Shown: piece after piece, positions 48,965 through 52,458 of the stretch
Numbering within the stretch: the first letter of the stretch is position 1
Layout of the letters: each line of letters begins with the position of its first letter
NCBI GenBank assembly: GCA_964610395.1
Contig: CAZSXP010000001.1
Location: 63,342 to 127,341 of the forward strand
Direction of reading: 5' to 3'
From: an uncultured Gammaproteobacteria bacterium
Lineage (GTDB): Bacteria; Patescibacteriota; Microgenomatia; UBA8517
DNA length: 64,000 nt
Translations under genes and position numbers: made by a program
The notes under the pieces: generated by a model
Databases searched by the model: none
What the model was told of the DNA's origin: nothing
The model's input: the letters and a program-made list of their open reading frames with translations, nothing else

Positions 48965-50380
48965 TTATGGAGCTACTTCTGCCCACTTGGTTCTTTTATA
49001 CATTAGTTTTTGTGGGAAGAGCATTACTTGGTCAGGTGCAAATTCAAAAAGTTCTGCAGGGGTTACTGTGTCATCTGGTAAGTCTCTTTGTAATGTTATT
49101 CCCCCATATGAAGCTACAGAACCTCTGACATTAAGTTGTGATGTTCCTAATCCAGTACTAAAACCAGTATCAGCAATATACATACCTTCAATAGATGGTG
49201 AACCAGTTACAGTTCCTGCTACAGATATGTTTCCATTTACAAATACTCCAAAAAACCCTGAATTATCATTTAAGTTTATTTTACCGTTTATATTAAAGTT
49301 TCCTGTTTTAACAAATAAAATCACTTTTCTTGATCCAAAATCAATGTTGCCTGCAGTATCAATGTTTCCTGTAATTTTGTACCATTCATAGCCGTTTGCA
49401 TCTAGGGTGACACCTACCCCTGTTGTTAGTTTACTAATATCATTAATAACAGTATCATCAGGAATTAAATTTTCAAAATAACTATAATTAAAAATTCGAG
49501 GTAGAGAAGTTGTTGTATTTGCACTCCAAAGTGTAGAAGATATTGTTCCAGGGGTTACAGCTATTTGATCTCTATAGACAGGTACTCCAGGAAATCCACC
49601 ACTTCCAACAGTATCAAAATATAATCCTCCTGGCATTTTAGATACTATATCCCCAGTTGCAGTTACATCCCCATCTTTAACCTGCCACCATGGTCCTTGG
49701 CAGGATTGGGTGTTACAAGCTTGCCACCTTGTAGATCCACAGACACTGTAACTAAGTTGTATTCCTCCCCCACAAGTTACACTACAAGCTCCCCACGCCC
49801 CCCAATTATTATAATCCCAAGTTGCACATGTACCACCACAGCCATCGGCTTGTCCACAGGAAGGCGCTCCACAACTTGGTACACAAGGTGGTGGTGCATC
49901 TACTCTACATCTCTGTCTATTTACAAAAGAACACTCCTCTCCTCCACCTTCACATTCCTTGTAACATTTCTCTTCACCCCTTTTGTTAAAAAAACATGAT
50001 TGCCAGCATACCTGTTTTGTCTCTCTACAAGTATATTCTTGATATGTCTCCATCTCACATCCTCCCTCACTTTCCCCCCCACCCTTACCCGGCGTTCCTG
50101 TCCCAACTGCACAACAACCACTGTTATTATTACAAGCATAAGAACCAGCATAACAGCCTCTTATTTGACCACTTCCACTGTCACAACACGAATGAGCCCA
50201 CGACGCACAACTTCCATCAATGTTTTCATATATACAGGTTGCGTCAGGACACCAATTTGCACAGGCATTTACGCTCGTCGTGCTTGTCACTAAAAATCCA
50301 ACTACCATCACCAGCCATATCCCGACCACTACTATTATTTTGCGCATCGCTCCTCCATTCCCCGTTGTAAAAACAACCAA
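48965..50380 (-). CDS. Cys-rich secreted/surface protein with a thrombospondin type-1-like repeat and a C-terminal Gly/Asn-rich beta-helix-like region
   Basis: N-terminal TM/signal; 'WGAWGACSVTCGGGIQ...C' matches the WxxWxxCSxTCGxG TSP1 core; about 60 Cys in the N-terminal half; 'GNIDTAGNIDFG...GNFNINGKINLNDNSG' repeats; elevated GC. Confidence 0.55.
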   Translation of the reverse strand: MVVFTTGNGGAMRKIIVVVGIWLVMVVGFLVTSTTSVNACANWCPDATCIYENIDGSCASWAHSCCDSGSGQIRGCYAGSYACNNNSGCCAVGTGTPGKGGGESEGGCEMETYQEYTCRETKQVCWQSCFFNKRGEEKCYKECEGGGEECSFVNRQRCRVDAPPPCVPSCGAPSCGQADGCGGTCATWDYNNWGAWGACSVTCGGGIQLSYSVCGSTRWQACNTQSCQGPWWQVKDGDVTATGDIVSKMPGGLYFDTVGSGGFPGVPVYRDQIAVTPGTISSTLWSANTTTSLPRIFNYSYFENLIPDDTVINDISKLTTGVGVTLDANGYEWYKITGNIDTAGNIDFGSRKVILFVKTGNFNINGKINLNDNSGFFGVFVNGNISVAGTVTGSPSIEGMYIADTGFSTGLGTSQLNVRGSVASYGGITLQRDLPDDTVTPAELFEFAPDQVMLFPQKLMYKRTKWAEVAP

Positions 50381-50868
50381 AAATTATAAGTGTAGATTTC
50401 TCGTAAGTCTCCTTCCTTACCGCCCATTTCGGGTGTAGTAATAAATACTCGTACATAGTCACCCACTTTAGCTTTCTGGCGCCAACTATATAAATCAGTG
50501 TCTATTTCTCTTTCGATTACCCCCGCTTCACCCACATTTAATCGTGCCAGTACTTCTGGATTACAACCATCATACCAAGAATAAACTGAGTTCTCATCCA
50601 CAACAAATGATTGCAATCCCTCTACTCCCCACACCCATACTCTACCAAGCGCACTTCCCGCCAGTATCCCTCCATAAATCCGCTCCGAGTCATATCCTCT
50701 AAATTCACTCCATGTCTGCTCCTGCTCCTCTTGTGATGGAAATTGGTCTATCAGTCTTTTTGCCCGCCAAAACTGCTCCAAGCCCGCAAAACGATACACA
50801 TACACTCCAACAAAAACCAGTAAAACTGAAACGACTGTCAAAGATATCCAGACCCACCACTTCTGCAT
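50335..50868 (-). CDS. Hypothetical membrane-anchored protein (GC-rich gene)
   Basis: N-terminal TM 'WWVWISLTVVSVLLVFVGVYVY'. Confidence 0.4.
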   Translation of the reverse strand: MQKWWVWISLTVVSVLLVFVGVYVYRFAGLEQFWRAKRLIDQFPSQEEQEQTWSEFRGYDSERIYGGILAGSALGRVWVWGVEGLQSFVVDENSVYSWYDGCNPEVLARLNVGEAGVIEREIDTDLYSWRQKAKVGDYVRVFITTPEMGGKEGDLREIYTYNFWLFLQRGMEERCAK

Positions 50869-50943
50869 ATCTTAATTGAAGCAAAAAACCATCCACTATG
50901 CAACATCCAAAATCATATAATTCAATTCAAACTGTTTATGAAT

Positions 50944-52458
50944 TTATTTAACCCAAAAATACCGAACATCGTTCAACGAACTTGATTTTACTGGCACTAT
51001 AATTAACACTTTGTTGTTTGTCTCATATACCAAGTATTGTGGAGTATTTGGATCATTGCGATCTACCTCTATTACTAAACCCCAAGCCAATTGATCAGGA
51101 TCAAGCATCAGCCCAGAAAAACCCGATTTTTCTAGAGTAAATGGATCTGATCCAGTTGAATTTATAAATACTTGCCTCGTTTTATTAATTAAGGGAACAA
51201 AATATTCTGCAGACACATATCTTTGTGGTCTATTAATATTGCCAATCTCACTCTCTGGTATCGGCTTATAATTTGTCGGCATCAAATCGGTGGCGTTCTC
51301 TACTGCAAACCGAAGGTCAAAATTACCATTTACATATATTTCCACCCCTGTCTCAGGGTCTATTATCACCACGCCATTTTCGTTCTCAACGATTTTTAGT
51401 CCAACTAGTGGGTAGCCGTATTTTTTAAAATTCACTTTAGCTTGCAAGACTGCCTCGCTCTCCACCCCCCACTTGCCGGTTTCTTTGTCATAGGCATATA
51501 TAACATTTTTGCCATCAATATCTCTATATTGCAAAACATTGTCTTGCCCAAGGTAAATATTTTTTTCTAACTCAGCATTGTTAAGAACAAGCACTTCTCC
51601 ATTCTCCAAAGTAATACTCAAGCCATTTTTATCATATTTGGCATTGGTCATGTCCTTAAGATCAATCCCCGCCTGATCAAATTTTTCTTTTACTTCGGCA
51701 GGCAAGAGGGATTCTGGGGGAATTTCTGGTTTTATTAACATTGCATTAACTTTTGACCCCAATAATCTTTCTGTAGGAACTAAAACTCCTCCTGGAATAA
51801 AGTTTATATTACGAGAAGATAATTCTTCAATCGTCATGTTGGCTACTTCCGCTTCAGATAGTTCTGTATCAAAAATCAAAAGTGATTTTTCAAGATCGTT
51901 ACCTGTTATAGGATCTTGGGTTATTCCAAGTCCTACATTACCCTCAGAACTTAACATTCTATTCAAAACTATATATATTACTTCTCCTTGATCTCCACCA
52001 AAAACCATAGCAGTTCTACCTTTTTCCTCAACCTCTGAAGTTGCGCTGAAAAAAGTGTAAGCTGTTGGTTGTCCGTTTATGTCATAAACTTTAATACCTG
52101 ACGCAGAATATTCAATCGTGCTTGGGTCTTTGAATAAATCTTTAATTCTCTGATCATTAGTAAAAGCTTTAAATGGACCTGCAAGTTTTGTAATAATTTC
52201 TGATTGTTCGATAAATTCATAATCTCCTAAGCCATTAACTACTTCTGTTGAAGTGGGAATAGGAAGTGAGGCAGTTGATTCAGTTCCTGAAGAATTTGGG
52301 ATTGGAGTTGATCCCTCTGCTTGATTTAAAATTACATCTACACCACAGGCAGTAAGAAGTCCAACACCTAATCCATAAATTAATGCTCTCCTTGCTTGTC
52401 CTACTGTAATTTGTTCTTTCATTTGATTATCAAACGATGCAAACTGTATATCTTTCAT
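50944..52458 (-). CDS. Large putative lipoprotein
   Basis: Lipobox 'LLTAC'; N-terminal region paralogous to the small lipoprotein at 62549..62758. Confidence 0.5.
   Translation of the reverse strand: MKDIQFASFDNQMKEQITVGQARRALIYGLGVGLLTACGVDVILNQAEGSTPIPNSSGTESTASLPIPTSTEVVNGLGDYEFIEQSEIITKLAGPFKAFTNDQRIKDLFKDPSTIEYSASGIKVYDINGQPTAYTFFSATSEVEEKGRTAMVFGGDQGEVIYIVLNRMLSSEGNVGLGITQDPITGNDLEKSLLIFDTELSEAEVANMTIEELSSRNINFIPGGVLVPTERLLGSKVNAMLIKPEIPPESLLPAEVKEKFDQAGIDLKDMTNAKYDKNGLSITLENGEVLVLNNAELEKNIYLGQDNVLQYRDIDGKNVIYAYDKETGKWGVESEAVLQAKVNFKKYGYPLVGLKIVENENGVVIIDPETGVEIYVNGNFDLRFAVENATDLMPTNYKPIPESEIGNINRPQRYVSAEYFVPLINKTRQVFINSTGSDPFTLEKSGFSGLMLDPDQLAWGLVIEVDRNDPNTPQYLVYETNNKVLIIVPVKSSSLNDVRYFWVK

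Follow-up and report, generated by a model that had tools for sequence, protein, structure and literature searches.

We describe a three-gene block, 48965-52458, in a 64,000-nucleotide stretch of contig CAZSXP010000001.1 (assembly GCA_964610395.1), a stretch that we call the window. The block is filled by three open reading frames (ORFs) of the minus strand, encoding proteins of 504 (A), 177 (B) and 471 (C) residues. We think that they form a single co-transcribed cell-surface operon of a low-GC bacterium with a small genome, of the Candidate Phyla Radiation (CPR), or Patescibacteria, type; taken as a whole, this explanation seems to us reasonably probable. C is best understood as a secreted surface protein of modular build, probably adhesive, with a thrombospondin-type repeat and a C-terminal beta-solenoid. 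The middle third of the operon appears to have been swapped as a unit, its counterparts being found in Anaerolineales (Chloroflexota). The original prediction for this DNA, made from its letters, had read the GC-rich part of the region as horizontally acquired adhesion factors with eukaryote-type modules. Horizontal exchange is supported for the central block, neither for the thrombospondin module nor from eukaryotes.

Organisation of the operon

Genes A and B are 75 nt apart and B overlaps C by 13 nt. The 471-codon frame of C (48965-50380) likely starts at the ATG at 50347, which gives a protein of 460 residues, and GGAGGAG stands four bases upstream of that ATG. We read the overlap as translational coupling of B and C. 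The same arrangement, with a C start of the form ...GGAMR(K/Q/A)I overlapping the frame of ...MEERCAK and its stop, is also found in four Anaerolineales loci (L008, L009, L010 and L014). A promoter upstream of A (Table 1) has weak evidence, as sigma-70-like sites are no commoner in the region than in shuffled sequence.

An assembly chimera within the window was considered and rejected. A-B-C, junctions included, is reproduced at 99.7-100% identity in three independent assemblies (L017-L019). A public ENA contig, L001 (ERZ5996431 NODE_10261), matches the window at 99.9% over 45032-50585; from 50585, inside gene B, it turns into unrelated high-GC DNA (its positions 1-948), and its other end (6503-6712) is also without a match to the window. 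Since three assemblies agree with the window, L001 is the chimeric one, probably an assembly chimera in that public record. No paralogues of A, B or C were found elsewhere in the window.

The membrane protein and the large lipoprotein that had been noted beside C were both confirmed: B carries an N-terminal transmembrane helix, and the signal of A ends in ...GLGVGLLTAC, in agreement with the lipobox pattern [LVI][ASTVI][GAS]C. In A, a degenerate twin-arginine stretch, QARRALIYG, precedes the lipobox LTAC. Two relatives of A (P0156 and P0157) have a canonical twin-arginine SRRDFLK with a lipobox, the window copy (52380-52458) having just QARRALIYG. B is modelled as a transmembrane helix, two short helices and an OB-fold-like barrel, with a predicted local distance difference test score (pLDDT) of 93.9. 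It belongs to a conserved family of 33 proteins, and two Cys residues of its ectodomain are invariant. Neither A nor B matches any family in Pfam, NCBIfam or PADLOC.

Architecture of protein C

C opens with a putative Sec-type signal peptide, for which AlphaFold2 (AF2) predicts a helix at residues 2-19 and whose cleavage pattern is kept in the homologues (VYA↓C, VRA↓C, ANA↓C, VKA↓C). The protein contains 28 cysteines, not the 60 or so that had been estimated, and all of them lie upstream of the solenoid, within the N-terminal 227 residues of the 471-residue reading. No LPXTG, SLH, RTX or autotransporter anchor is present. A Hint/intein domain was looked for in C and gave no Hint match; such domains are present in several C homologues and in C-like proteins of Anaerolineales.

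The thrombospondin type-1-like motif of the original prediction, CATWDYNNWGAWGACSVTCGGGIQLSYSVC, is indeed present, at residues 174-203 of the 460-residue protein. A Pfam TSP_1 scan of the whole 471-residue protein reported no match, and it is the isolated segment of 55-58 residues that scores 24.6-24.8 bits with PF00090, above the cut-off of 21.6. All 10 homologous modules match PF00090 (best E 1.4e-7). When a profile of these 10 modules was compared with the PDB, thrombospondin-1 was found at E 1e-15, and the remaining matches were all thrombospondin-repeat proteins (CSP, properdin, F-spondin, TRAP, ADAMTS, UNC5). The WxxW and CSxTCG signature is there as WGAWGACSVTCGGG, at positions invariant in the 10-sequence alignment. 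The repeat has five Cys from CSVTC onward and one more 8 residues before the first Trp, covers just positions 2-35 of the 49-position PF00090 model, and has lost the single Arg that is nearly invariant in all other homologues. From these comparisons we take the window copy to be a real, albeit short and degenerate, thrombospondin type-1-like repeat. Of the 116 aligned homologues, which include sequences 45-80% identical that share this arrangement, 12 have the module directly before the solenoid; it therefore belongs to that family and is no recent import.

The C-terminal domain was modelled by AF2 from a 117-sequence alignment as a triangular beta-solenoid of the ice-binding-protein type, with pLDDT 92-98 over residues 220-455. 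According to this model, the solenoid has the ice-binding-protein/ComZ fold. The beta-helix that had been foreseen is thus confirmed by structure, no Pfam beta-helix model matching at all. The 242-residue domain has no match in Pfam at E<=10, DUF3494 included, nor in NCBIfam or PADLOC, and a profile search of PDB sequences returned no ice-binding protein at E<=1. DSSP finds in the model two helices of five residues (288-292 and 438-442) and no long alpha-helix along the solenoid.

A search for C homologues gave 170 proteins, all sharing the C-terminal ~240 residues (PWWQVKDGD...WxEVAP); the few with a named source come from Patescibacteria, Woesebacteria and Microgenomates. Their N-terminal parts are variable, with Cys-rich modules, Big_2, fn3, Hint/intein-like domains and TSP_1 among them. 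When the C-terminal domain was searched exhaustively by itself, 1,375 cluster representatives were obtained at E<=1e-3, and in nearly all of the 150 listed the domain is at the protein C-terminus. C thus falls in a large family without Pfam annotation, of ~1,375 clusters, in which a C-terminal solenoid of the ice-binding-protein/ComZ type is combined with interchangeable N-terminal modules, and a subset of which carries a bacterial thrombospondin type-1 repeat among those modules.

We hypothesize that C is exported by its Sec signal and built like a stalked adhesin, in which disulfide-rich modules and a thrombospondin-like spacer would carry the triangular solenoid at the C-terminus, the latter being the presumed ligand-binding tip. 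A surface or adhesion role had also been predicted originally and is still the most reasonable reading, one that we infer, together with the docking of C discussed below, from its architecture, its fold and the co-variation of its parts. The opposite orientation deserves attention as well. The solenoid could be the envelope anchor (in the cell wall, S-layer or pilus), leaving the variable Cys-rich, thrombospondin, Big_2 and fn3 modules displayed at the N-terminus to bind ligands. Many bacterial surface proteins anchor by a conserved domain and act by a variable part, which is how the C-terminal, widely conserved solenoid and the freely varying N-termini of the family could be understood, and thrombospondin type-1 repeats are adhesive in eukaryotes. 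However, Cys-rich module 1 of C co-varies with the membrane-bound A and B, which fits docking by the N-terminus, and the solved relatives bind by the solenoid (the ice-binding proteins, and ComZ as a proposed tip receptor). We consider this orientation unlikely.

Composition of the GC-rich run

The GC rise that had been noticed by eye at 49.6-50.9 kb is real, with GC 0.444 in 49600-50900 vs a window mean of 0.332. In 400-bp intervals, 49.4-51.0 kb has a GC of 0.40-0.468, while the remaining window averages 0.329 (standard deviation, SD, 0.034); the highest interval is 4.1 SD above the rest, and this is the sole extended run of the window with GC >=0.40. Across it, the plus strand holds 413 C vs 165 G. 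Using 56 other ORFs of the window as codon-usage reference, we derived from the amino acids of each segment its expected GC and its expected GC at third codon positions (GC3; Table 2).

Table 2. Base composition of the segments of A, B and C, as observed and as expected from their amino acids
Segment	GC	GC expected	GC3	GC3 expected	z
A, residues 1-247	0.347	0.363	0.170	0.207	-1.5
A, residues 248-335	0.390	0.330	0.398	0.220	4.2
A, residues 336-504	0.373	0.335	0.320	0.212	3.6
B	0.441	0.388	0.390	0.255	4.7
C, residues 1-86	0.450	0.416	0.337	0.244	2.3
C, residues 87-172	0.457	0.448	0.267	0.224	1.0
C, residues 173-219 (thrombospondin-type repeat)	0.475	0.463	0.298	0.267	0.5
C, residues 220-460 (solenoid)	0.355	0.374	0.162	0.219	-2.3

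Over the Cys-rich and thrombospondin part, the rise is fully due to amino-acid composition and codon usage is native. GC is high there because of Cys, Gly, Ala, Pro and Trp codons, and the excess is carried by second codon positions (GC 0.60 at these positions in the N-terminal 232 codons of C). The argument that a eukaryote-type module of atypical GC must have been acquired fails on this point. Synonymous sites look foreign only in a central block of ~1.6 kb, ~50090-51719, made of A residues 248-504, B and C residues 1-86, to which the anomaly of codon usage is confined; the deviation is clear but not extreme. Pooled GC3 is 0.36 from A residue 248 to C residue 86 (520 codons) vs 0.17 in the CPR-type ends of the operon (488 codons), the genes of the genome having a mean of 0.22 and an SD of 0.045. 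Background genes are overdispersed in GC3 (SD of z 1.68, maximum 3.9).

Structured RNA was rejected as the cause of the peak. At gathering thresholds, Rfam finds in the window just one tRNA, at 7.2 kb, and a permissive Rfam scan of 49.5-51.5 kb gave one match at chance level. Since B is a conserved protein family, the region is coding.

The central block has counterparts in Anaerolineales

B was surveyed in one genome per GTDB species. It was found at seven genome loci, five of them in metagenome-assembled genomes (MAGs) of Anaerolineales, one in an untyped low-GC bin and one in a MAG labelled Pseudomonadales; the numerous species of Patescibacteria whose genomes were scanned did not yield it. 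B was also found in six metagenome contigs of GC 0.45-0.52. The window protein is 43-62% identical to its Anaerolineales counterparts. Wherever the contig reaches, the gene order is shared: a lipoprotein with a C-domain like A residues ~277-503, then B, then a C-like gene that overlaps the end of B and encodes a signal peptide and a Cys-rich module as in C residues 14-86. A residues 277-503 share 33-44% identity with the lipoproteins encoded upstream of the B homologues in Anaerolineales loci. For A residues 336-504, identity to the C-terminal part of the protein encoded upstream of B is 27-44% (L008-L014, L020-L025), and for module 1 of C, identity to the N-terminus of the protein encoded downstream of B is 41-52% (L008-L011, L022-L024). 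P0091 is the one solenoid homologue among the 116 aligned that carries CxNWC close to its N-terminus, and a distant relative of B lies 4.6 kb upstream of its gene.

The 842-kb genome CP129472 contains a homologous operon of the same order. Here the A N-domain (56% identity between A residues 67-285 and QY322_00310) and the C solenoid (61%) are conserved. The other parts, namely the C-domain of A, the middle gene and the N-terminus of C, show no relationship to their counterparts in the window. A relationship between B and this 162-residue middle gene product was rejected (hhalign probability 0.6%, unrelated in sequence). A residues 1-247 are also homologous to P0156 and P0157. Since the A C-domain, B and C module 1 travel and change together, we think that they interact. 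Module 1 of C would dock onto the C-domain of lipoprotein A and the membrane-anchored OB-fold protein B, a proposal that we make because the three parts are inherited and swapped together.

The ESLLP module of A, of ~85 residues, is 59-84% identical among lipoproteins in Chloroflexota-type and CPR-type contexts, one of them from a Curtissbacteria MAG, and recurs with other N- and C-terminal domains in P0156, P0161, P0164, P0166-P0170 and P0172. It is far more conserved than its surroundings, synonymous sites included. Window positions 51460-51719 are 85.6% identical over 263 nt to an Anaerolineales MAG contig, L015 (GC 0.485), and the encoded protein 84%. In this stretch, third codon positions are 79% identical and the same codon is used at 55 of the 68 identical degenerate residues (81%), so synonymous sites are far from saturated. 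At A residues 247/248, the switch in GC3 coincides with the change of homology from CPR-type to Anaerolineales-type. Cassette genes in L008 and L015 have a GC3 of 0.39-0.42 vs 0.49-0.59 in their flanks, and in the window 0.32-0.40 vs a background of 0.22. They are thus compositionally odd, or intermediate, in both hosts.

These data are consistent with an exchange of the central block between the lineage of the window and Anaerolineales-like bacteria, or with its being drawn from a pool shared by both; the exchanged block would now lie between sequences of CPR type, with the N-domain of A at one end and the solenoid of C at the other. The direction and the timing that we infer for such an exchange are as conditional as adhesion and the docking of A, B and C. 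Alternatively, no exchange took place: the cassette could be ancient in both phyla, its GC3 excess could result from gene-specific codon bias or mRNA selection, and the 263-nt similarity could be an artefact of binning or assembly. The overdispersion of the background genes would agree with this, as would the position of the near-identical segment close to a contig end, the chimeric state of public contig L001 at the same locus and the identity of B to Anaerolineales, just 43-62%. However, the cassettes of L008 and L010 lie well inside Anaerolineales contigs and have DNA of high GC to either side, B is missing from the Patescibacteria scanned yet present at five Anaerolineales loci, and the two switches at A residues 247/248 coincide. 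Moreover, the B of L015 shares just 33% identity with that of the window, so this contig is no mere piece of the window's organism. We find the absence of any exchange quite improbable.

A phage origin or vector was considered and rejected: B has no relatives in IMG/VR, the DNA pattern of the ESLLP module is absent there, and the C model has no match in BFVD at E <= 0.001. A defence system was likewise rejected, PADLOC giving nothing meaningful. In the Anaerolineales MAG W58_115 the lipoprotein-B-C cassette occurs at least three times (L009/L014 on DAOUMJ010000067.1; L012 on DAOUMJ010000030.1), twice on one 10.9-kb contig, which suggests that the cassette was amplified in that lineage.

Features and surroundings of the operon

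The features of the region are collected in Table 1.

Table 1. Features of the operon region (window coordinates)
Feature	Position	Strand	Basis or remark
Sigma-70-like promoter match, TTGACA-17-TAGTAT	52500..52528	-	42 nt upstream of the A start; 10/12 positions
Gene A, 504-aa lipoprotein	50944..52458	-	ORF; mosaic of CPR-type N-domain, 'ESLLP' module and C-domain
A residues 1-247, signal and CPR-type N-domain	51718..52458	-	Native codon usage
A residues 248-335, 'ESLLP...KETGKW' module	51454..51717	-	Highly conserved; shuffled among lipoproteins with different flanks
A residues 336-504, C-domain of the type accompanying gene B	50947..51453	-	Sequence comparison
Gene B, 177 aa	50335..50868	-	N-terminal transmembrane helix, two short helices, OB-fold-like beta-barrel ectodomain (modelled)
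B/C junction	50335..50356	-	Ribosome-binding site GGAGGAG 50350-50356; C ATG 50347; 13-nt overlap ATGCGCAAAATAA with the end of B
Gene C, secreted modular protein, 460 aa plus stop	48965..50347	-	ORF reading
C residues 1-28, Sec-type signal peptide MRKIIVVVGIWLVMVVGFLVTSTTSVNA, then C	50264..50347	-	Hydrophobic helix, V-x-A site before Cys
C residues 29-86, Cys-rich module 1 (ACxNWC...CCD...AGxYACN...CC)	50090..50263	-	Of the kind that moves with B
C residues 87-172, Gly- and Cys-rich middle modules	49832..50089	-	Aligns with P0002 and P0003; low AF2 confidence
C residues 173-219, short thrombospondin type-1-like repeat (C..WGAWGACSVTCGGG....C......C....C)	49691..49831	-	PF00090, module profile
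C residues 220-460, C-terminal beta-solenoid (PWWQVKDGDV...WAEVAP), no Cys	48968..49690	-	AF2 model

The window also encodes type IV pilus machinery, in line with the host attachment by pili that the original prediction had considered. PilB (T2SSE plus MshEN), PilT and PilC are found at 28-32 kb, the machinery extending over 28055-32101 and 36438-43901, and seven ORFs at 36-44 kb carry the prepilin motif G[FY][TS]L[IV]E. In CP129472 the homologous operon is flanked by pilM and a pilin array. The solenoid of ComZ has been reported as closest to the ice-binding protein FfIBP, and ComZ has been proposed as a pilus-tip receptor (PMC6561018). C might be a pilus-associated receptor of the same kind, acting at the tip of the pilus in the uptake of DNA or in contact with a host, and not a free-standing adhesin. 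We give this only a slim chance. The start of C, MRKIIVVVGIWLV...SVNA↓C, is a Sec signal without the GFTLIE motif, and neither a prepilin signal nor a pilin-like N-terminal helix or domain was found in C; its likeness to ComZ is that of the generic ice-binding-protein fold, and homologue loci L002 and L003 have no pilus genes nearby.

Just downstream of C, on the opposite, converging strand (45755-48930), lie genes for an NAGPA-like phosphodiester glycosidase, a WbqC-like protein and a PIG-L deacetylase. These envelope-sugar genes fit a cell-surface neighbourhood. Farther away, 26244-26796 is poor in ORFs, with a GC of ~0.43 and no Rfam family match. On its plus strand, two tandem small ORFs, at 26426-26536 (MPDDGPDNEGSGGSESGQESGGPDGPDNSETGTISD) and 26595-26714 (MRNDPGSDWDDGAASEQGNDGTDSSDSSNDGTSSGGDQG), have strong ribosome-binding sites and encode acidic peptides rich in Gly, Ser and Asp, and a perfect 14-bp hairpin then starts at 26736. 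At 32349-34523, a YcaO cyclodehydratase gene is directly followed by a gene of the nitroreductase family; the pair could be an azoline-forming peptide-modification system.

Discussion

Several observations weigh against the picture of a stalked adhesin with an exchanged docking part. Neither experiment nor known family gives A, B or the solenoid a function, and the linkage to pilus genes is seen in just two genomes. The Arg ladder of thrombospondin repeats is not found in C, where the window copy reads IQLSYSV vs TQTRTNA in homologues. Folds in the repeat and the Cys-rich part are predicted with low confidence (pLDDT 36-76 over both, 36-68 in the repeat). With background z values of GC3 up to 3.9, the 4.7 of B alone is not overwhelming. 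Finally, the 85.6% segment lies 0.5-2 kb from the end of contig L015, in a terminal stretch of low GC, and could belong to a chimera.

It is scarcely credible that the whole GC-rich segment, repeat included, is a recent foreign island of possibly ultimately eukaryotic origin that encodes adhesion factors. In its favour, GC is truly raised, part of the segment has atypical codon usage, and the best-known carriers of thrombospondin type-1 repeats are adhesins of animals and apicomplexans (PMC3417536). Against it, the repeat and Cys-rich part are native at third positions with a GC predicted by their amino acids, the GC3 of the solenoid (0.16) is slightly under the genome mean, the repeat and the solenoid occur together in 12 of the 116 aligned homologues, and the sole foreign-looking block matches Anaerolineales and not eukaryotes, so that for the thrombospondin part this reading is largely refuted. 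The case is also a caution for genome scans, as the composition of Cys- and Gly-rich proteins alone can make GC peaks in AT-rich genomes.

How CPR bacteria, or Patescibacteria, attach to their hosts is the central unknown of their biology. If the MAG data hold, the exchanged middle of the operon gives a concrete clue to gene flow between CPR bacteria and Chloroflexota, and possibly to which of them lives on the other. One could go further and propose that the central block is a self-contained docking cassette moving between Patescibacteria and Anaerolineales, that the ESLLP module marks a physical association of CPR episymbionts with Chloroflexota hosts, and that the symbiont attaches by a surface module of host type that bears the symbiont's beta-solenoid at its tip; we regard this as a long shot. 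Literature searches on CPR-Anaerolineae hosts, and on thrombospondin type-1 repeats or DUF3494 in CPR, returned nothing relevant from the collection of papers searched.

The proposed surface protein C resembles known systems in parts. With modular bacterial surface adhesins it has in common the signal peptide, the variable modules that serve as repeats or spacers, and a terminal domain of binding type. Unlike them, it would anchor via a dedicated lipoprotein and a membrane OB-fold protein, an uncharacterised mode. With the PF00090 repeats of thrombospondin-1, TRAP, CSP, properdin and F-spondin it shares WxxW, CSVTCGGG and the Cys residues before the Trp pair and after it. However, its copy is shorter (~43 residues from first to last Cys) and occurs singly, as a linker before a beta-solenoid and in a bacterial host. 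The solenoid differs from type 1 ice-binding proteins (DUF3494; Colwellia IBP 3wp9, Shewanella SfIBP_1 6bg8) in its sequence, only 16-18% identical, and in its model, which lacks the long helix packed on their solenoid; there is no hint of a role with ice. The matching contigs come from groundwater metagenomes. Finally, ComZ of Thermus thermophilus (6qvi) carries its solenoid inserted into a pilin-like domain, unlike C, in which a Sec signal and Cys-rich modules precede the solenoid and no pilin domain is present.

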